A stretch of 7,118 nt of DNA from a virus. The notes under the pieces are model-generated. The model worked only from the letters and a program-made list of their open reading frames with translations, did no database searches and was not told the DNA's origin. Both the position numbers and the translations under genes were made by a program. The stretch is taken from UHGV virus genome UHGV-0319381, one strand, 5' to 3'. Numbering within the stretch: position 1 is the first letter of the stretch; each line of letters opens with the position of its first letter. Of this stretch, positions 132 to 7,118 are shown piece after piece.

Positions 132-155
132 AGTGACTACACCAGTGACTACACC
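132..155. repeat. Tandem direct repeat AGTGACTACACC x2 in the spacer between the inverted int 5' ends
   Basis: Two perfect adjacent 12-bp copies at 132-143 and 144-155. Confidence 0.8.
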
Positions 156-246
156 GATCGTTGCACAAAGGGCTACAACGTGAAACAAGCTGGAACAAGG
201 AAAATCACAAATCTGTTGATAATCAAAAACATAATGCACAGCCTGA

Positions 247-371
247 TAAAGAGGGGGTAAAACGTGAGCAGAGCAATGAACAAACTGAGCGATACCTTGC
301 TAAGGAAACTTCATGGTAAGCCAGCGGAGAAAAACACGTTTTATAGTGATGGCGGAAACCTGAGCGTGAAA
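247..371. repeat. Right arm of the perfect inverted repeat (int RBS plus first 36 codons)
   Basis: Exact reverse complement of 1-125. Confidence 0.9.
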
Positions 372-1493
372 TATTTAACATCAGGGAAATTGACCTGGTA
401 TTTCACATACAGGGCCGGAACGGGAAGGGAGACACGACCCGAACGCATTAAGCTGGGAAGTTATCCTGATCTGAGCCTGAAAGCAGCCAGGGAAAAAGCC
501 GCACAGTGTCGCACATGGCTGGCTGAGGGGAAAAATCCACGTCATGAGATGAATTACACCGTACAGGAAGCGTTAAAGCCCGTAACGGTTGGCGATGCGC
601 TCACCTACTGGCTTGAGTCTTACGTAAAGGAAAACCGCGTGGATTATATCGCCCTGAAAAGGCGACTTAATAATCACGTAATACAGCAGATTGGTGCTAT
701 GCCGCTGGATAAATGCGAGCTACGGCACTGGCTGGCCTGTTTTGACCAGGTGGCAAAGCGAACGCCTGTTACTGCCGGATTCGTGCTACAGGCGTGCAAA
801 CAGGCGCTTAAGTTCTGCCGTAGGCGGCGCTATGCAATCAGCAACGTTCTGGACGATCTGAACGTGGCGGACGTTGGGAAAAAACCGGATATAAGCGAAC
901 GTGTCTTAAGTAACAAAGAACTTGGCGAATTATTGCAGGCACTGGACAAAAAAATATTTTCCCCTTACTACGTCGCGTTAATCCGCCTCCTGATTGTCTT
1001 CGGAGCCAGGACGGTAGAACTGAGGCTATCGGAGATCGGGGAGTGGGATTTTACGGAAATGCTATGGACCGTTCCGAAGGAGCACAGCAAAACGAAGGTC
1101 GCAATATTCCGGCCCATACCGGAAGCGATCCTGCCGTTCGTCACGCAGCTGGTGGAGCAGAACAGGCACACGGGCTTATTGCTGGGGGAAGTGAAACAGG
1201 AGGCCAGCGTATCGCAGTATGGAAGATTAGCGCACAGGAGGCTTAATCATCCTCACTGGTCACTGCATGACATCCGGCGCACCTTTACAACCATGCTGAA
1301 CGATTTAGGCGTTGATCCGCATGTCGTGGAGCAGCTTACAGGTCATCAGATGCCAGGAATGCAGCGAGTTTATAATCATTCCCGTTATCTGGATGCTAAA
1401 CGCAATGCGCTGGATATGTGGATGGAGCGGTTAGGGATACTGGCGGGAACACATGAAAACGTAACCACGCTACCAGTAGCCAGAAGAAAATAA
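264..1493 (+). CDS. int: Site-specific tyrosine integrase, P4-type (409 aa)
   Basis: GTG start with GAGGGGG RBS 6 nt upstream. The N-terminus (KLSDT...GGNLSVKYLTSGKLTWYFTYR) aligns by eye with the N-terminal arm-binding region of CP4-57 IntA-like integrases. C-terminal tyrosine-recombinase signatures are present: ARTVELR, HDIRRTF, and Tyr in VYNHSRYLD. Confidence 0.9.
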   Translation: MSRAMNKLSDTLLRKLHGKPAEKNTFYSDGGNLSVKYLTSGKLTWYFTYRAGTGRETRPERIKLGSYPDLSLKAAREKAAQCRTWLAEGKNPRHEMNYTVQEALKPVTVGDALTYWLESYVKENRVDYIALKRRLNNHVIQQIGAMPLDKCELRHWLACFDQVAKRTPVTAGFVLQACKQALKFCRRRRYAISNVLDDLNVADVGKKPDISERVLSNKELGELLQALDKKIFSPYYVALIRLLIVFGARTVELRLSEIGEWDFTEMLWTVPKEHSKTKVAIFRPIPEAILPFVTQLVEQNRHTGLLLGEVKQEASVSQYGRLAHRRLNHPHWSLHDIRRTFTTMLNDLGVDPHVVEQLTGHQMPGMQRVYNHSRYLDAKRNALDMWMERLGILAGTHENVTTLPVARRK

Positions 1494-1510
1494 TTTTTTT
1501 CGTGTTTTTT

Positions 1511-1526
1511 CAGTATGCGCATACTG
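1511..1526. repeat. Perfect 16-bp palindrome CAGTATGCGCATACTG just downstream of int
   Basis: Self-complementary 8+8 bp; preceded, not followed, by T-runs, so not a canonical intrinsic terminator on the + strand. Confidence 0.7.
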
Positions 1527-1532
1527 GATATG

Positions 1533-1586
1533 CGAACAGATACAACATGCAACAATGAGCAACAATGCGGAACAACTACGAACAAG
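1533..1586. repeat. Helically phased AACAA-type repeats (6 units at about 10-bp spacing), including GCAACAATG x2
   Basis: AACAGA, ACAACA, AACAAT, AACAAT, AACAAC, AACAAG recur about every 10 bp; GCAACAATG at 1549-1557 and 1559-1567. Confidence 0.6.
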
Positions 1587-1680
1587 AGACGAAAAAGTGT
1601 ACGGATTTATAAGTAGCTGATTTTTAATGTGTTACTGGTTTTTTATACACTAGCGAATCACTCTTTAAATAGCGAGAAAA

Positions 1681-1707
1681 AAGGCATGAAACAATATTTT
1701 ATGCCTT
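1681..1707 (-). terminator. Possible intrinsic terminator (7-bp stem AAGGCAT/ATGCCTT, 13-nt loop), better formed on the minus strand
   Basis: On the minus strand the hairpin is followed by TTTTTCT; on the plus strand it is followed by TGTATT only. Confidence 0.25.
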
Positions 1708-1867
1708 TGTATTAACATGAATTTAAATGATTTTATCCTGATTATTCCTGTTTCTGTAAACCATACGACCTCAACATTTGCCAACTCTGAATCATCCTGA
1801 CACAATCAGACACATCCCAACGCAATAGAACACGAAATAACTCTTTAAGAAACGAAAGGGGGCAATA

Positions 1868-2056
1868 GTGTTAAGCACTGATCGGTTTATACGTGAAAAA
1901 GAATGCGAAAAGCTAACAGGCCTTAGCCGCTCATGCCGCTACCGCCTGGAAAAGGCCGGACAATTCCCATCACGTCGTAAACTTGGCGGTCGTTCCGTTG
2001 GCTGGTCTTTATCCGAGGTTCTGGCCTGGAAGGATAGCTGCAAGGCAGTTCATTAA
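1868..2056 (+). CDS. alpA: AlpA-family transcriptional regulator / excisionase-like DNA-binding protein (62 aa)
   Basis: GTG start with GGGGG RBS 5 nt upstream. The sequence (LTGLSRSCRYRLEKAGQFPSRRKLGGRSVGWSLSEVLAWK) matches the AlpA pattern (TG..R...Y......FP....LG..SVGW...E...W) and sits directly downstream of int, as in P4-like and PICI elements. Confidence 0.85.
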   Translation: MLSTDRFIREKECEKLTGLSRSCRYRLEKAGQFPSRRKLGGRSVGWSLSEVLAWKDSCKAVH

Positions 2057-2202
2057 TCACGCTGGCGGCACACAGCCGCCACACATCAATCATCTGAACA
2101 CAGAGCTATAACCATGAAGATTGAATATACGCCAGAACGTGGGCGGGGATTCGTTCGCCCTGGTGAGACTGGAAAACCACAAAATTGGGGTTTTTCAGGC
2201 AT

Positions 2203-2230
2203 AAAAAAAGCGGCCCCGAAATGGAGCCGC
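2203..2230 (-). terminator. Probable intrinsic terminator for the minus-strand RHH/57-aa cassette (possibly bidirectional)
   Basis: Stem GCGGC (2210-2214) pairs with GCCGC (2226-2230); on the minus strand it is followed by a T7 run (complement of A-run 2203-2209). It lies about 95 bp past the minus-strand stop at 2326. Confidence 0.4.
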
Positions 2231-2325
2231 CTTTCTGAACAGATAACACGCTGCGCCGTTTGTGTGTGTGATCCCAAACATAAGCACGGGGATGATAGCC
2301 GCTATCAGGCTGGTGGGCAATGCAA

Positions 2326-2499
2326 TCAGTCTGGTTCAGTTCGTTGCCATACCTGCAATGAGCGCTTTTCCCTGTACTCTTTAAGGAATTGCTCAAGGGC
2401 AAAAGCACATGGCGCGAATCTTTCTGATTCATGCTCTATCTTTCTGCGCCGTCTTTTCCGTGCCGGTGATAATGTTTTGGTCAATTCTTTATCGGTCAT
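2326..2499 (-). CDS. Hypothetical small basic protein (57 aa, MTDKELTKTLSPARKRRRRKIEHESERF...)
   Basis: ATG at 2499 with AGGA 7 nt upstream; same strand as and 57 bp downstream of the RHH gene; followed by the terminator-like hairpin. An alternative start at 2514 gives 62 aa. No family recognised. Confidence 0.3.
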   Translation of the reverse strand: MTDKELTKTLSPARKRRRRKIEHESERFAPCAFALEQFLKEYREKRSLQVWQRTEPD

Positions 2500-2556
2500 T
2501 GTGTTGTCCTGCATAGCAATGCGCCGTAATACCTCACACCACGGCGCTGATAGTGA

Positions 2557-2862
2557 TTATTCTGATTCTTTGGCCTTGCGGCGCTGTAGTTCTTCACGAG
2601 CGATGGCGATAAGTTGCCCGAGTTCTTCCGTAGCTTTAATACCAATTTTTTCCACTTGCGCCAATGCATCGAGAGAAGAAATCAGAGGATTTTCACTGCT
2701 TCCTTCTGCCTGGCGGCGGGCGATCTCCCCGCGCATGGCGGTTACTATGAATCCGGCGTTGCTTTCGCCGTCCAGTTTTACGGATTCCATGCCATCAAAA
2801 GCATCATGTGGGATACGAATTGAAATCTGTTTTGATTTGTCGTTGATAGTGTTTTTTGCCAT
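2557..2862 (-). CDS. Arc/Mnt-like ribbon-helix-helix DNA-binding protein, candidate repressor (101 aa)
   Basis: ATG at 2862 with AGGAGA RBS 6 nt upstream (complement of 2869-2874). The N-terminus KQISIRIPHDAFDGMESVKLDGESNAGFIVTAMRGEI fits the RHH pattern of a beta-strand with R-x-P followed by two helices. It is divergent from the rightward operon, with operators between them. Confidence 0.55.
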   Translation of the reverse strand: MAKNTINDKSKQISIRIPHDAFDGMESVKLDGESNAGFIVTAMRGEIARRQAEGSSENPLISSLDALAQVEKIGIKATEELGQLIAIAREELQRRKAKESE

Positions 2863-2884
2863 GTGCATTCTCCTAAACAAAAGA

Positions 2885-2960
2885 TGTGATTCAGTATACA
2901 CAAAAAAGAATCACAAAAAACACTTGACCTGTGATTCAGTTGAATTTAATTTAAATCACA
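2885..2960. promoter_or_regulatory. Divergent promoter/operator region: two copies of a palindromic operator TGTGATTCAGT-N-(G/A)AATCACA flanking a TTGACC -35 box
   Basis: Operator 1: TGTGATTC 2885-2892 with GAATCACA 2908-2915. Operator 2: TGTGATTC 2930-2937 with AAATCACA 2953-2960. The two are 45 bp apart. TTGACC at 2924-2929, then 17 bp to TAATTT at 2947-2952, so operator 2 overlaps the putative rightward promoter. Confidence 0.45.
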
Positions 2961-3049
2961 CCTCAGTAAGAGGATGTAAACGACAACGCCCCGAACTGTT
3001 TGCGGCAGTAGCGGGGCGTCTAACCAAACCGTTAACAGGAGTAACGATT

Positions 3050-3247
3050 ATGGCTGGAACACAGCATACCCCACGTCTGGCGCACACACAAACTGCCTTT
3101 GTGTGGCGTTTTCTGGCACTAAGTGCCGGAGAATCTCAAATCATCCACGTAACCGCCTGGACGGAACGCGAAGCGCGTAGCCGTTGCCCGTCCGGTTGTG
3201 TTGCTGTATTCGCCGCCCGTATTCGTCAGGGGTCACATCATGCGTAA
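3050..3247 (+). CDS. Small protein paralog A (65 aa) with FVWRF...TEREAR...ARIRQG..HA motifs; possibly the Icd-like/Ash-like small-protein family of P4-like elements (name uncertain)
   Basis: ATG at 3050 with ACAGGAG RBS and 8-nt spacer. Paralogous to 3534-3704. It is the only part of the long 2114-3247 ORF that looks coding. Confidence 0.55.
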   Translation: MAGTQHTPRLAHTQTAFVWRFLALSAGESQIIHVTAWTEREARSRCPSGCVAVFAARIRQGSHHA

Positions 3248-3533
3248 AAACCGCTTGCAAAAAATTATCACGGGGCTGTATGCTTCCCCCGTCGCCCACA
3301 TGGCGACCGGGTTTGACAGCCTGAATACTACAGCGGACAGCCGCTTACATTCCGATATGCGGTTTTTTTGTGTCCGTAAACCTACCCATACCCGCATTAT
3401 GGCGGGGCGTAACGGGGGAGCCTTTGCGCTCGCTGGTTCCTGTAGTGCCAGTCTGTCAACCCTGTTACGTCTCGCCACCATGTTTGACAGCGTAGTAGCG
3501 AGACTCCTTAATTTCACTACAGGAGCCTTTCAC

Positions 3534-3704
3534 ATGGCTGTATTCGCACGCCCTTATTTTGTCTGGCGCTTTATGCAGTGCCTGACAGACAGCATTGCAA
3601 TATTCACCGTTACCGCTGCCACTGAGCGCGAAGCACGTGCACAGCTGCCGCACGCACATCTGATTTTTGTCGCCCGTATTCGTCAGGGGGTGTGCCATGC
3701 CTGA
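3534..3704 (+). CDS. Small protein paralog B (56 aa) with the same FVWRF...TEREAR...FVARIRQG..HA motifs
   Basis: ATG at 3534 with identical ACAGGAG RBS and 8-nt spacer; shares a 19-bp identical stretch (GCCCGTATTCGTCAGGGG) with paralog A. A possible TTGACA-N17-CTTAAT promoter lies at 3484-3512. An alternative in-frame start at 3240 (154 aa) is not excluded. Confidence 0.55.
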   Translation: MAVFARPYFVWRFMQCLTDSIAIFTVTAATEREARAQLPHAHLIFVARIRQGVCHA

Positions 3705-4017
3705 TATGTCAAATTACCAGTACCTGATTAATCCGCATTTTAACTGTGAGCATGATATTGCTAAAAAAGTTTATTCCGCTGCGGATGGGGCTACTGACAA
3801 TATATCAATGGCTGTTGCGTCAATTGGTAGCCTGATGTGGCATGCGTCAGAAAATGAGGACTATGACGAAAAGGCCATGCGCATTGATATGGGTAATATT
3901 GGTTTGTTACTGGCAATGCTTGGACATTTTGATATTTCGTTACGGTGCACCATTGGAAATGCCACAGATGCATTAAATGCTATAAAGAAAGCGAATACTG
4001 ATTCAAATCGGGGATAA
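3697..4017 (+). CDS. Hypothetical protein (106 aa)
   Basis: ATG at 3697 with GGGGG RBS 6 nt upstream; start overlaps the stop of paralog B (ATGCCTGA). No family recognised. Confidence 0.5.
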   Translation: MPDMSNYQYLINPHFNCEHDIAKKVYSAADGATDNISMAVASIGSLMWHASENEDYDEKAMRIDMGNIGLLLAMLGHFDISLRCTIGNATDALNAIKKANTDSNRG

Positions 4018-4023
4018 ATAATC

Positions 4024-4323
4024 ATGAGAGCGTATTTATCTGGCTTTACTGCCAGCGGTTATGCACACCCCAAAATTATCCCCGGCGCTATTTATCTGGA
4101 TAAGAACGGTAACAGAGTAACGGTAAAAGAACTGATGTTTGACCGTGTGTATTTTATTCGTGATGGCTATTCATTTCATAGTTCGCTGAACGTGGAGATC
4201 TTTATTAGCAGATTCCGGCGGGAAATCCCGCTTTCCAGAAATAACCATGTGTCATGTATGGATGTTGATAAAAAACTACAGGAACTGAAAAACATGATTG
4301 CCGCGTGGAGAGAGCAGAAATGA
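4024..4323 (+). CDS. Hypothetical protein (99 aa) immediately upstream of, and translationally coupled to, the alpha-like gene
   Basis: ATG at 4024 with GGGGA RBS about 9 nt upstream; its TGA stop overlaps the ATG of the next gene (ATGA at 4320-4323). Confidence 0.5.
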   Translation: MRAYLSGFTASGYAHPKIIPGAIYLDKNGNRVTVKELMFDRVYFIRDGYSFHSSLNVEIFISRFRREIPLSRNNHVSCMDVDKKLQELKNMIAAWREQK

Positions 4324-6137
4324 AAAAAGCGCCAAATTTAAAACACCAGCCGCGTGACAAAATGACGGAAGTCATCATTTTTGCGGGTAGTGATGCGTGG
4401 GCACATGCGAAGCAGTGGCAGGAACAGGACGGGCGACTGGCTGGCGATAACGTGCCACCTGTCTGGCTTGGAGAGCAACAACTTGCCGAACTGGACAACC
4501 TGCAAATCGTACCGGACGGACGCTATCGCGTGCGTCTCTACCAGGCGGGGTTATTGCGTCCGGGGCTTGTTAATACCATCGGGCAGAAACTGGCAGCGGC
4601 AGGTGTCAGGGATGCTGATTATTACCCTGAAGGAATGCACAGCCAGAAACGGGAGAACTGGCGCGAATATCTGGAACGTGAGCGGGGAGAGCTGGCGGAA
4701 AAGAAAAAGGTAGTTGAACTGCCTGTAAAGAAAAAAGAGCGGGTAAAAGACGATAACGCTTCATCACTGGCGCTTAACCAGATGGGAGCAAGTCAACGCG
4801 GCGAAGTTCTCCTGGCACATTATGGCGGTGAACTGGCGATTCATGCTGACTCTGACACTGTTCACTATTACAACGGCGTTGTATGGGAGCCAGTACAGGA
4901 TAAAGAATTACAGCGAGCTATGGCGCAGATTTTCATTGATGCGGAGATCAGCTATTCGCAGAACGCCATTAAATCGGCGGTCGATACCATGAAGTTAAGT
5001 TTGCCTGTAATGGGGAATACAGCCCGTAACCTGATTGGATTCAGTAACGGTGTTTTTGATACCCGGACAGGCGATTTTCGGGAGCATAACAAAAACGACT
5101 GGTTGTTAATTGCCAGTGAATTACCTTTCAGCCCACCAGCAGAGGGGGAAACGCTGGCAACACATGCGCCGAATTTCTGGAAGTGGTTACGCCGTTCGGT
5201 GGCTGAGAATGACCGCAAGGCGGATCGCGTACTGGCTGCATTATTCATGGTGCTGGCGAACCGGTACGACTGGCAGTTATTCATTGAGGTAACAGGTCCA
5301 GGGGGAAGTGGTAAAAGCGTGATGGCGGAGATTTGCACCATGCTGGCGGGTAAGGCCAACACGGTATCGGCAAGCATGAAGGCGCTGGAAGATGCCAGGG
5401 AACGCGCGTTAGTGGTTGGCTTTTCGCTGATTATCATGCCGGATATGACCCGTTACGCTGGTGATGGCGCAGGAATTAAGGCCATTACAGGCGGTGACAA
5501 GGTGGCAATCGACCCGAAGCATAAAGCCCCCTACTCAACACGCATTCAGGCGGTAGTGTTGGCGGTGAACAATAACGCCATGTCATTCAGTGACCGCAGC
5601 GGGGGGATTTCACGTCGTCGGGTGATATTCAATTTTTCGGAGGTTGTACCGGAAAACGAACGCGACCCCATGCTGGCAGAAAAAATAGAAGGAGAGCTGG
5701 CGGTTGTGATTCGCCACCTGCTTACTCGTTTTTCTGACCAGGACGCAGCTAAACGCCTGCTGTATGAGCAGCAGAAATCAGAAGAAGCTCTGGTGATAAA
5801 ACGCGAGGGCGATTCGCTGGTGGACTTCTGCGGCTATCTCATGTCGTCGGTAATGTGTGATGGTCTGTTAGTGGGTAATGCCGAAATTATTCCGTTCAGT
5901 CCGCGCAGGTATCTTTATCACGCCTATCTGGCATATATGAGGGCACACGGATTCGGTAAACCTGTAACACTGACGCGCTTCGGTAAAGATATGCCGGGGG
6001 CAATGGCGGAATATGGCAGGGAGTATATGAAACGGAAAACGAAGCACGGTTTGCGTTCAAACGTGACACTGACGGAGGAATCAGAAGACTGGATGCCATC
6101 ATGTGTATCGGTCACTAATGACGACAGCAAAAATTAA
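4320..6137 (+). CDS. P4 alpha-like replication protein: SF3-type helicase / phage-plasmid primase P4-family C-terminal region (605 aa)
   Basis: ATG at 4320 with GGAG RBS; an alternative GTG at 4305 gives 610 aa. Walker A VTGPGGSGKS at about residues 325-333 and Walker B-like hydrophobic-D (LIIMPD). A long C-terminal region is followed immediately by TGTTCACC iterons. The N-terminal roughly 300 aa carry no primase signature I can recognise by eye. Confidence 0.8.
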   Translation: MKKAPNLKHQPRDKMTEVIIFAGSDAWAHAKQWQEQDGRLAGDNVPPVWLGEQQLAELDNLQIVPDGRYRVRLYQAGLLRPGLVNTIGQKLAAAGVRDADYYPEGMHSQKRENWREYLERERGELAEKKKVVELPVKKKERVKDDNASSLALNQMGASQRGEVLLAHYGGELAIHADSDTVHYYNGVVWEPVQDKELQRAMAQIFIDAEISYSQNAIKSAVDTMKLSLPVMGNTARNLIGFSNGVFDTRTGDFREHNKNDWLLIASELPFSPPAEGETLATHAPNFWKWLRRSVAENDRKADRVLAALFMVLANRYDWQLFIEVTGPGGSGKSVMAEICTMLAGKANTVSASMKALEDARERALVVGFSLIIMPDMTRYAGDGAGIKAITGGDKVAIDPKHKAPYSTRIQAVVLAVNNNAMSFSDRSGGISRRRVIFNFSEVVPENERDPMLAEKIEGELAVVIRHLLTRFSDQDAAKRLLYEQQKSEEALVIKREGDSLVDFCGYLMSSVMCDGLLVGNAEIIPFSPRRYLYHAYLAYMRAHGFGKPVTLTRFGKDMPGAMAEYGREYMKRKTKHGLRSNVTLTEESEDWMPSCVSVTNDDSKN

Positions 6138-6151
6138 ACTTATGGAATAAC

Positions 6152-6378
6152 TGTTCACCACTGTTCACCCTGTTATAAATATCTTTTATATCAGTATATT
6201 ATATGGTGAACAGTTATTTGTGAACTGTTCACCAAACTATTCACTGTTCACCTTTTTGATTATTTATTGAGCTTTAAGGGTGAACAGTGGTGAACAGTTG
6301 GTGAATAGTTTTTGTGAAACTGTTCACCCCTTAACATTATGAATAAAAAGGGAAAATCTCAAAAGGTGAACAGGTGAA
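6152..6378. repeat. Iteron array, putative origin of replication (crr/ori-like): about 11 copies of TGTTCACC in both orientations around an AT-rich core
   Basis: Forward TGTTCACC at 6152, 6162, 6226, 6245, 6321. Reverse GGTGAACA at 6205, 6279, 6289, 6365, with degenerate copies at 6300 and 6373. Several copies sit at 10-11 bp phasing. AT-rich stretch at 6171-6204. Confidence 0.75.
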
Positions 6379-6424
6379 GGGTTAAAATGCAAAAATTTTA
6401 TTTTATTGCTGTGAGGTAAAGCCT

Positions 6425-6670
6425 GTGACAACGAAGCACGCAAAAAAACCACAATCTCACGCCCTTGATTTGACAGAACACTGGCTGAGGGTGGCGATAA
6501 AAATCATCGACCGCAACGCGGGAGAAGGGTACGCAAAAGCACATCCCGAACTGATAAGCGCATTCATGACCACGGCGGCAGCAAACTTTGCCACGCTGAC
6601 AGAACGGGAGATTGCCGAAGCGGAACAGGTGACAACCATCAACGTTAAAACCGGAGAGCAGACAGCATGA
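6425..6670 (+). CDS. Hypothetical protein (81 aa)
   Basis: GTG at 6425 with GAGG RBS 8 nt upstream; stop overlaps the start of the following SSB-like ORF (ATGA at 6667-6670). No family recognised. Confidence 0.4.
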   Translation: MTTKHAKKPQSHALDLTEHWLRVAIKIIDRNAGEGYAKAHPELISAFMTTAAANFATLTEREIAEAEQVTTINVKTGEQTA

Positions 6671-7118
6671 CAGCACAGATAGCGGCTTACGGGCGGCTGG
6701 TGGCTGACCCGCAGTTAAAGACCACCAGCAAAGGGACACAAATGGCGATGGCGAGTATGGCGGTTCCCCTGCCGTGCAGCCAGGCAGATGACGGAACGGC
6801 GACGATGTGGTTATCTGTCCTGGCGTTTGGCAGACAGGCCGACGCACTGGCAAAACACCACAAAGGCGAACTGGTGAGCGTGGCGGGTAACATGCAGGTG
6901 AGCCAGTGGACAGGCCAGAACGGGGAAACGCGGCAGGGCTGGCAGGTTATTGCAGACAGCGTAATCAGTTGCTTAAAACGGTATGTTATCCCCGTACGGA
7001 TCAACATTTCCCGCCTGTTGTTTTGCCCTGTTCAGCGCGTCAGTAGCCTGGCCCTGTTGAGCTTTTTTGCCGCCCGGTCGCGCCGTTCGCGCACTGATTA
7101 CGCTGTCTGCAATAACCT
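6667..7118 (+). CDS. SSB-like OB-fold single-stranded DNA-binding protein, 3'-partial (runs off the window)
   Basis: ATG at 6667 with GGAG RBS. IAAYGRLVADPQLKTTSKGTQMAMASMAV...WLSVLAFGRQADALAKHHKGELVSVAGNMQVSQWTGQNGETRQGWQVIADSV aligns by eye with the bacterial SSB OB-fold pattern (VGRLG.DPE.R.T..G...A.F..A...W....A.G..AE.A..YL.KGS.V...G.L....W.D..G..R....V.A). No stop before the window end; the region after the OB fold is atypical (hydrophobic/basic rather than Gly-rich acidic tail). Confidence 0.55.
   Translation, partial: MTAQIAAYGRLVADPQLKTTSKGTQMAMASMAVPLPCSQADDGTATMWLSVLAFGRQADALAKHHKGELVSVAGNMQVSQWTGQNGETRQGWQVIADSVISCLKRYVIPVRINISRLLFCPVQRVSSLALLSFFAARSRRSRTDYAVCNN

Follow-up and report, generated by a model that had tools for sequence, protein, structure and literature searches.

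Which protein reads the evenly spaced short repeats between the integrase gene and alpA in UHGV virus genome UHGV-0319381, and what would binding there achieve? The window analyzed here is the full 7,118-nt stretch of this genome and represents the left part of a phage-inducible chromosomal island (PICI) from Escherichia coli, with a P4-type integrase gene (int), alpA, a primase gene, and P4-type iterons. An earlier inspection, referred to here as the sequence-only reading, had described a palindrome and helically phased AACAA-type units in the int-alpA spacer and had offered several interpretations, including binding by AlpA, integrase arm binding, an enhancer close to the attachment (att) site, and intrinsically bent DNA. 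Our best explanation overall, to which we assign a probability of about 0.6, is that the repeats form an array that is bound by AlpA, is shared with the att arms, and feeds back on alpA. Domain matches to the two flanking genes confirmed the location of the array, and the argument starts from the following features.

264 to 1493, plus strand: int, encoding a P4-type tyrosine integrase with an N-terminal arm-binding domain (Arm-DNA-bind_3 and Phage_integrase matches).
1542 to 1585, plus strand: the ACAA array, five in-phase direct repeats starting at 1542, 1552, 1562, 1572, and 1582 with a period of exactly 10 bp; proposed AlpA operator.
1542 to 1555, plus strand: the di-unit ACAACATGCAACAA, the window copy of a 14-mer shared between arrays; candidate nucleation site.
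1534 to 1540, plus strand: GAACAGA, previously counted as a sixth unit; it reads ACAG instead of ACAA, is spaced 6 bp, not 10 bp, from the next unit, and supplies the right half of a CTG-N10-CAG motif.
1868 to 2056, plus strand: alpA, encoding a 62-amino-acid (aa) winged-helix protein of the AlpA/Vis family (Phage_AlpA, PF05930; E value, 5e-18); proposed binder of the array.

Exact copies of AACAA were found at 1551, 1561, 1571, and 1581 with the 10-bp spacing that had been described, and GCAACAATG is indeed present twice, at 1549-1557 and 1559-1567. Of the six units at intervals of about 10 bp that had been counted, five are in phase, including a tACAAc unit whose ACAA starts at 1542, but the sixth (GAACAGA) is out of phase. 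Tandem Repeats Finder independently reported a period of 10 at 1549-1575. In 2,000 Markov-1 simulations of the window, no 5-mer recurred four times in exact form with a period of 10 or 11 bp, the maximum being three copies (51 of 2,000 simulations). As four exact phased copies never arose in the simulations, the ACAA array is far beyond chance. Five units at exactly 10 bp are direct repeats with helical-turn spacing, as is typical of an operator array.

The phasing is also conserved. Spacers were compared from eight diverged E. coli islands (inserted at the roxA, allE, ilvL/yifB, and abgR sites) and about 70 viral-contig copies, together representing 57 distinct int-alpA spacers that were 64 to 100% identical to that of the window. 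The phasing, whose conservation in related islands the sequence-only reading had named as the point to check, was kept across all 57. The ACAA cores were about three times less variable than the inter-unit bases (nucleotide diversity of 0.099 versus 0.339, with 0.218 for the whole spacer), and this contrast inverted when the core mask was shifted by 4 to 5 bp. Among 95 units from 20 distinct arrays, the unit logo was S-R-A-ACAA-Y-G, with ACAA invariant, and one locus (L050) shows the clean gain of one whole 10-bp unit. Conserved cores separated by freely varying bases are the pattern predicted for multimeric protein binding, and that part of the earlier interpretation is therefore supported.

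The spacers fall into two types. Type A, as in the window, carries the palindrome and five in-phase units, and type B, which includes EcCICFT073 (L102), an island that has been studied experimentally, carries six in-phase ACAAC units and no palindrome. As the palindrome is missing from type B and contains uncompensated single-base changes in three type A variants (L024, L033, and L063), the phased array, and not the palindrome, is the conserved feature. Two overlapping elements precede the array in type A spacers.

1511 to 1526, no strand assigned: perfect 16-bp palindrome CAGTATGCGCATACTG, lineage specific.
1524 to 1539: TACTGGATATGCGAACAGAT, of the form CTG-N10-CAG, with flanking triplets kept in all type A variants.

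The palindrome is perfect, as had been stated. However, it does not belong to the conserved feature, given its absence from the EcCICFT073-type lineage, the single-sided substitutions within its own lineage, and its lack of statistical distinction: perfect palindromes of at least 16 bp occurred in 11.5% of simulated 7-kb sequences, and in 1.4% of simulations when the 374-bp spacer alone was simulated, so that it is not beyond chance. An intrinsic terminator was considered for the palindrome and rejected, as a terminator scan was empty at 1511-1526 and no U-run follows 3' on either strand; a T-run precedes the palindrome on the plus strand, and an A-run follows it on the minus strand.

The palindrome and its right-hand neighbor together read CAG-N10-CTG-N10-CAG (1511-1539), which might be the operator of a dimeric regulator, with the right half TACTGGATATGCGAACAGAT acting as a LexA-like box through which the SOS response would reach type A islands. 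The outer CTG and CAG persist in every type A variant, with differing bases in between (ATATGCGA, ATAAGTGC, and ATAAGCAC), two variants read CTGT, and the window sequence has the form CTGG-N8-ACAG, which we take to resemble SOS boxes such as that of ruvA. The center of the motif contains GC, however, and no promoter is evident near 1524-1539. The CTG-N10-CAG motif is absent from type B islands, and the palindrome of which it takes in the right end is within chance expectation and carries uncompensated substitutions. In EcCICFT073, a type B island, alpA induction is SOS independent (PMC6092414). We regard a dimeric-regulator operator with an SOS input at this position as unlikely.

Sister arrays elsewhere in the islands indicate what the spacer array may be for. 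A scan of the CFT073 locus (49 kb) for chains of at least three ACAA at 9- to 11-bp spacing returned four units in the attL arm (on the opposite strand), six in the int-alpA spacer, and three in the attR arm, plus a single weak match elsewhere, with 0.07 matches expected. The same trio is present in the O157 PICI (L103) and in an island inserted at tqsA (L001/L010), and every island of this PICI family carries three arrays, in the attL arm, the int-alpA spacer, and the attR arm. A fourth array was found only in the capsid-forming L001, where five TTTGT/TTGTT units, including the 14-mer, occupy 13305-13349, immediately 3' of a terminator and some 210 bp upstream of the major capsid gene; the classical PICIs L102 and L103 are without an array at this position. 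The fourth array suggests that, in capsid-forming islands, the packaging operon is under the control of the same binder.

The 14-mer ACAAC(G/A)TGNAACAA is present exactly once in every attL, spacer, attR, and late array, and no copy was found outside the arrays in 147 kb that included about 35 kb of flanking chromosome (expected number, 0.003 per 49 kb). The sharing of a di-unit in addition to the periodic core speaks for a single protein that reads every array, and we consider it highly probable that the ACAA array is an island-specific protein-binding array shared with att.

In the window itself, the attL arm appears in an altered form. Complete genomes align to 247-6969 only. The sequence of 247-371 recurs in exact reverse complement at 1-125, and that of 6944-6969 at 7093-7118, with a loop of about 122 nt in both cases. 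The fold-back ends (1-246 and 6970-7118) are probably an assembly or library artifact; positions 1-246 contain, in inverted form, the true int-upstream region together with the 5' end of int, and within them 128-244 correspond to the real int-upstream att arm. In real genomes, the attL array reads TTGTT on the int strand and lies 70 to 100 bp upstream of int. Two features of the att arm fall within the inverted end, and tandem 12-mers of the same kind are found at the att arms of other islands.

165 to 198, plus strand: copy of the attL-arm array with four ACAA units, including ACAACGTGAAACAA at 175-188.
132 to 155, plus strand: two copies of AGTGACTACACC, the reverse complement of two copies of GGTGTAGTCACT; probable integrase arm-type sites.
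Elsewhere: tandem att-arm 12-mers at L001 5971-5994, L010 6108-6131, and L102 2885-2908 and 14104-14127.

Sites repeated in both att arms could belong to the integrase itself, and the sequence-only reading had listed integrase arm binding among its options. Under this explanation, the N-terminal domain of Int would use the ACAA units as additional arm-type sites, and Int would bind the spacer array in autoregulation. Lambda-type integrases likewise have arm-type sites in the form of tandem direct repeats, and Int has an Arm-DNA-bind_3 domain. In both att arms, however, the ACAA array is followed by a different motif, two tandem 12-mers (GGTGTAGTCACT or GGTGTAGTTAAT), and in the three complete islands the arrays adjoin two copies of GGTGTAGTnnnT on attL and attR alike, as expected for the operator of a recombination directionality factor (RDF). 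The two 12-mer variants, tandem copies of GGTGTAGT(CACT/TAAT), covary with two alleles of the N-terminal arm-binding domain of Int, and this holds even at attR, 11 to 15 kb from int. The ACAA arrays, in contrast, are identical under both alleles. The 12-mers are furthermore positioned like the 12-mers annotated as "attP arm sequence repeat" in P4, with pairs on both arms and one pair abutting the int start. The tandem 12-mers are thus, judged by their sequence and placement, probably the integrase arm-type sites, and as they track the N-terminal alleles, the arm sites of Int are accounted for separately from the ACAA units. The ACAA units do not vary with the Int allele, and the spacer array lies outside att, carries no 12-mers, and is 1.3 kb from the core, so that integrase arm binding at the spacer is disfavored and very unlikely. 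The suggestion of an att-proximal enhancer was likewise rejected, as about 1.3 kb, including all of int, separates the spacer array from the island end.

As the Int sites are accounted for by the 12-mers, the ACAA arrays occupy the place expected of an RDF. RDFs characteristically bind direct repeats one helical turn apart in a head-to-tail manner (PMC7498355, PMC11963761), and for the dual-purpose RDFs (186 Apl, P2 Cox, and P4 Vis), the same repeats recur as a further array in a regulatory region away from att (PMC7498355). The islands encode a small protein of this type, AlpA, which is 47% identical to P4 Vis. The structural model of AlpA (predicted local distance difference test score [pLDDT], 86.8) matched the GIsul2 excisionase 8c3t best (template modeling [TM] scores, 0.83/0.90), followed by RdfS, Pukovnik Xis, TorI, and BldC, at a low sequence identity of 10 to 27% to Xis/RdfS/BldC-type proteins. 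AlpA was the sole excisionase-fold protein found in the island. Across nine aligned E. coli loci, AlpA identity is at least 92%, and in the spacer-bearing viral contigs of the locus listing it is at least 89%. The int and alpA proteins of EcCICFT073 are those of L005/L102, and its AlpA is 95% identical to that of the window. In EcCICFT073, AlpA activates its own promoter, PalpA, and its overexpression leads to int-dependent excision and replication (PMC6092414); alpA is also needed for the induction of capsid-forming PICIs (cf-PICIs). Of the options offered by the sequence-only reading, AlpA binding, which we infer from sequence, the structural model, and analogy with known RDFs, is the best supported, and AlpA is probably the binder of the ACAA arrays.

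Other binders are conceivable. A further DNA-binding protein of the island or of a helper phage (a PerC-like or YlcI/YnfO-like protein, or the phage inducer of alpA) might read the arrays, as the islands encode further small regulators and helper phages switch on alpA through an inducer (PMC6092414). The presence of arrays within both att arms points instead to a recombination accessory protein, a role for which AlpA alone in the island has the matching fold, and AlpA by itself triggers int-dependent excision (PMC6092414). We therefore judge another island or phage protein to be an unlikely reader.

A host factor could also bind the array, or the repeats could be nothing other than intrinsically curved DNA. 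Response regulators of the OmpR/PhoB or ArcA type recognize direct repeats 10 to 11 bp apart, so that phased direct repeats would suit them, and H-NS, IHF, or Fis are further candidates. The spacer is AT-rich (35% versus 51% G+C) and holds the four strongest predicted curvature peaks of the window in a wedge model with parameters entered by hand. The highest peak, at 1499, falls in the following element.

1494 to 1510, plus strand: two T-tracts (T7 and T6) about 11 bp apart, directly 3' of the int stop codon; near-invariant and the site of highest predicted curvature.

Intrinsic bending, as raised in the sequence-only reading, is therefore plausible insofar as the spacer is the most curved stretch in the wedge model, but bending alone leaves one observation unexplained: the C of ACAA, which curvature does not need, is invariant while its neighbors drift. 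The confinement of the arrays and of the 14-mer to the islands in the 147 kb scanned argues against a host factor, as does their placement beside the Int arm sites on both arms, which is the position of an RDF. H-NS has been shown to repress the alpA promoter of Shewanella CP4So (PMC5148205). As the spacer is AT-rich and curved, relief of nucleoid silencing is plausible as one route to activation, but a host factor or curvature as the whole explanation of the arrays appears improbable.

If AlpA is the binder, the AlpA-bound array might work as follows. AlpA would nucleate on the shared di-unit ACAACGTGrAACAA and polymerize head-to-tail over the adjoining ACAA units, with one site per turn, on one face of the helix and in the same orientation, bending the DNA. 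In the att arms, the AlpA filament would lie beside the Int arm-type 12-mers and direct excision, and in the AT-rich, curved int-alpA spacer it would mediate control of the alpA promoter. Positive feedback at PalpA has been shown genetically in EcCICFT073 (PMC6092414), whose spacer carries the six-unit version of the array. Autoactivation as the outcome at the spacer array is proposed on this basis and is held with less confidence than AlpA as the binder. A more far-reaching version, in which AlpA would run the whole island from four look-alike arrays, directing excision at the att arms, positive feedback at the spacer, and particle production directly from the array upstream of the capsid gene, with nucleation at the 14-mer in each case, is doubtful. 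In this version, the arrays that flank int, which are in inverted relative orientation, could also bridge and loop out int.

Two further elements between the array and alpA bear on the proposed feedback.

1680 to 1708, plus strand: conserved hairpin with a 12-bp stem, AAAGGCATGAAA/TTTTATGCCTTT (-12.9 kcal/mol; z score, -4.0).
1778 to 1806, plus strand: candidate PalpA, TTGCCA-17-(TG)CACAAT, a consensus match only, with the same site in EcCICFT073 (L102 4435-4463); the alpA transcript is predicted to start near 1813.

One base pair of the hairpin forms an A-T, G.T, G-C series across lineages, and the G.T form pairs only as plus-strand RNA. As the series works only in plus-strand RNA, the hairpin is probably the int terminator, or an insulator shielding alpA from int read-through. 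The array lies 3' of the int stop codon and 5' of the probable int terminator, where the repeats might act in RNA, as a CA-rich, unstructured element of the int 3' untranslated region that binds, for example, Hfq, ProQ, or CsrA. The array RNA is unusually unstructured (z score, +1.9). A strict 10-bp period has no rationale in RNA, however, and the same repeats are present in the opposite orientation and in the untranscribed att arms, which makes an RNA element highly improbable. An RNA family or structured RNA was also rejected, as the array RNA is less structured than shuffled sequences and Rfam gave no match at the gathering score, with only a sub-threshold opuB match at 1739-1827 (25.7 bits versus 75).

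Several observations weigh against an AlpA-bound array that feeds back on alpA. The array is about 190 to 280 bp upstream of the only conserved promoter-like site, which is far for classical activation, and the terminator-like hairpin stands between the two. The spacer array, whose AACAA units read in the direction of alpA, has the reverse orientation to its gene compared with the late array and the capsid gene. Furthermore, Fillol-Salom et al. saw no effect of AlpA on Pint, despite the array upstream of int (PMC6092414). A published mapping of a PICI or cf-PICI AlpA operator was not found in the literature searched.

Support from protein-repeat covariation is likewise limited in extent. The Vis/AlpA proteins of P4 and K-12 CP4-57 have the helix sequence (S/A)TIY, compared with SCRY in PICI AlpA, and their int-proximal arms (L021 3966-4010 and L224 680-790) carry TCC(G) units, not ACAA, phased at 10 bp, with four consecutive units in P4. 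These units sit between the core and the tandem arm 12-mers and are plausibly the Vis/AlpA boxes of P4 and CP4-57. However, the covariation of helix and repeat spans two groups only, and the P4 and CP4-57 units were picked by eye. A protein-database search for AlpA homologues gave 19 matches. Distant homologues (46 to 70% identity in genome and viral scans) were found only in a different gene context with no int directly upstream. When viral contigs were scanned for a pattern of five phased ACAA units, the matches were mostly to unrelated repeat-rich contigs, and among the matches listed, only members of the same PICI family had alpA nearby.

Upstream of the alpA homologues with 60 to 70% identity in other enterobacterial elements (L012-L018 and L090-L101), a terminator-like hairpin, e.g., GCCCTCGAAC..CGAACGAGGGC followed by a T-run, was seen 15 to 45 bp before the gene. 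It holds two CGAAC direct repeats 10 bp apart (CGAAC-N5-CGAAC), and the gene upstream is not an integrase gene.

Beside the array, the spacer contains two conserved boxes, AATCACTCTTTAAATAGCGA (1656-1675) and AATAACTCTTTAAGAAACGA (1836-1855), which are 180 bp apart. The second immediately precedes the ribosome-binding site of alpA and does not vary among nine diverged islands, and the CTTTAA core of the boxes recalls the P4 "ori type 2 repeat" GCTTTAAGTG. The boxes are possibly the target of the helper-phage inducer.

The remainder of the window agrees with its assignment to a PICI. A D5/P4-alpha-type primase gene was also identified.

4320 to 6137: primase gene, D5/P4-alpha-type.

The window also encodes several small genes, a DUF4222 protein, and an ssb gene. 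Iterons (TGTTCACC/GGTGAACA) are clustered in inverted groups at 6136-6312, downstream of the primase gene, and as the 8-mer TGTTCACC is identical to the P4 "ori type 1 repeat," the island origin is of the P4-alpha type. Partial matches to the window were present in 1,958 of 5,426 complete E. coli genomes. The top match among complete genomes (97% identity) is the island inserted at tqsA, which runs on into a capsid-protease-portal-terminase module and thus has the layout of a cf-PICI. The packaging module lies outside the window and was seen in this relative. Int, alpA, primase and replication genes, and an origin, arranged in one direction at a dedicated chromosomal site, are the features of PICIs and cf-PICIs. 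A 377-aa open reading frame on the plus strand (2114-3247) overlaps a minus-strand gene (2557-2862; YlcI/YnfO family in relatives) and icd-like fragments and is probably not a real gene.

Previous research on dual-purpose RDFs provides the closest parallels. Like the PICI arrays, the operators of 186 Apl and P2 Cox consist of short direct repeats 10 to 11 bp apart, and besides the array in att there is another in a regulatory region (PMC7498355); 186 has five repeats at attP and seven at pR-pL (PMC7498355), compared with three to four units per att arm and five to six in the int-alpA spacer of the PICIs. In contrast, the 186 and P2 arrays lie between face-to-face promoters and repress them, while the PICI array is about 200 bp or more upstream of a candidate promoter. 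The repeat sequence also differs, and the reported genetic effect of AlpA, whose binding to the array is inferred here, is activation. P4 shares with the PICIs the att layout of core, phased short units, two tandem 12-mer arm repeats, and int start, with 12-mer pairs on both arms, as well as the Vis homologue already mentioned and the ori iteron TGTTCACC; the Vis boxes of P4 are located between int and the attP core. Vis is a repressor of Pint that also regulates promoters away from att (PMC7498355; PMC7286903). Unlike in the PICIs, the P4 units are TCC(G) rather than ACAA, and vis does not adjoin int.

The lambda Xis sites X1-X1.5-X2 and the Pukovnik Xis, RdfS, and BldC filaments have winged-helix monomers that bind direct repeats head-to-tail, one per DNA turn, and bend the DNA (PMC7498355, PMC11963761). 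The folds of RdfS, Pukovnik Xis, TorI, and BldC are those matched by the AlpA model, at the low identity given above. Unlike in the PICIs, the lambda Xis sites are on one arm only, and there is no distant regulatory array. EcCICFT073 and EcCIEDL933 belong to the same island family, and in them AlpA activates PalpA and is needed for induction; the published work on these islands does not include a mapped AlpA binding site, and the arrays reported here are a prediction. The AlpA of Pseudomonas aeruginosa shares the name, and also a helix-turn-helix by which a short promoter element is recognized. However, it is a Q-like antiterminator with DNA contacts at residues 128 to 142 (the protein exceeding 140 aa) and a ring in the RNA exit channel, and it binds a single 6-bp element between -35 and -10 (PMC9371919); the 62-aa PICI AlpA is without such an N-terminal part. 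As it is an unrelated, much larger protein, it was rejected as a model.

The design proposed here is already known from the dual-purpose RDFs of P2, 186, and P4 and is not surprising in principle, but it is useful for PICI biology. AlpA acts as the master switch in Gram-negative PICIs and cf-PICIs, islands that transfer virulence and defense genes from one enterobacterium to another. The arrays provide a concrete, testable candidate operator for it, with a motif, a copy number, and three or four genomic positions, and they separate the proposed AlpA sites from the integrase arm sites in att. If the proposal is correct, the dual-purpose directionality factor design of P2, 186, and P4 would extend to the PICI family. 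It would also give a handle on the helper-phage inducer, since the factor that first fires PalpA must act either outside the array or upon it. The arrays further suggest that the packaging operon of capsid-forming islands may likewise be under the control of this protein.

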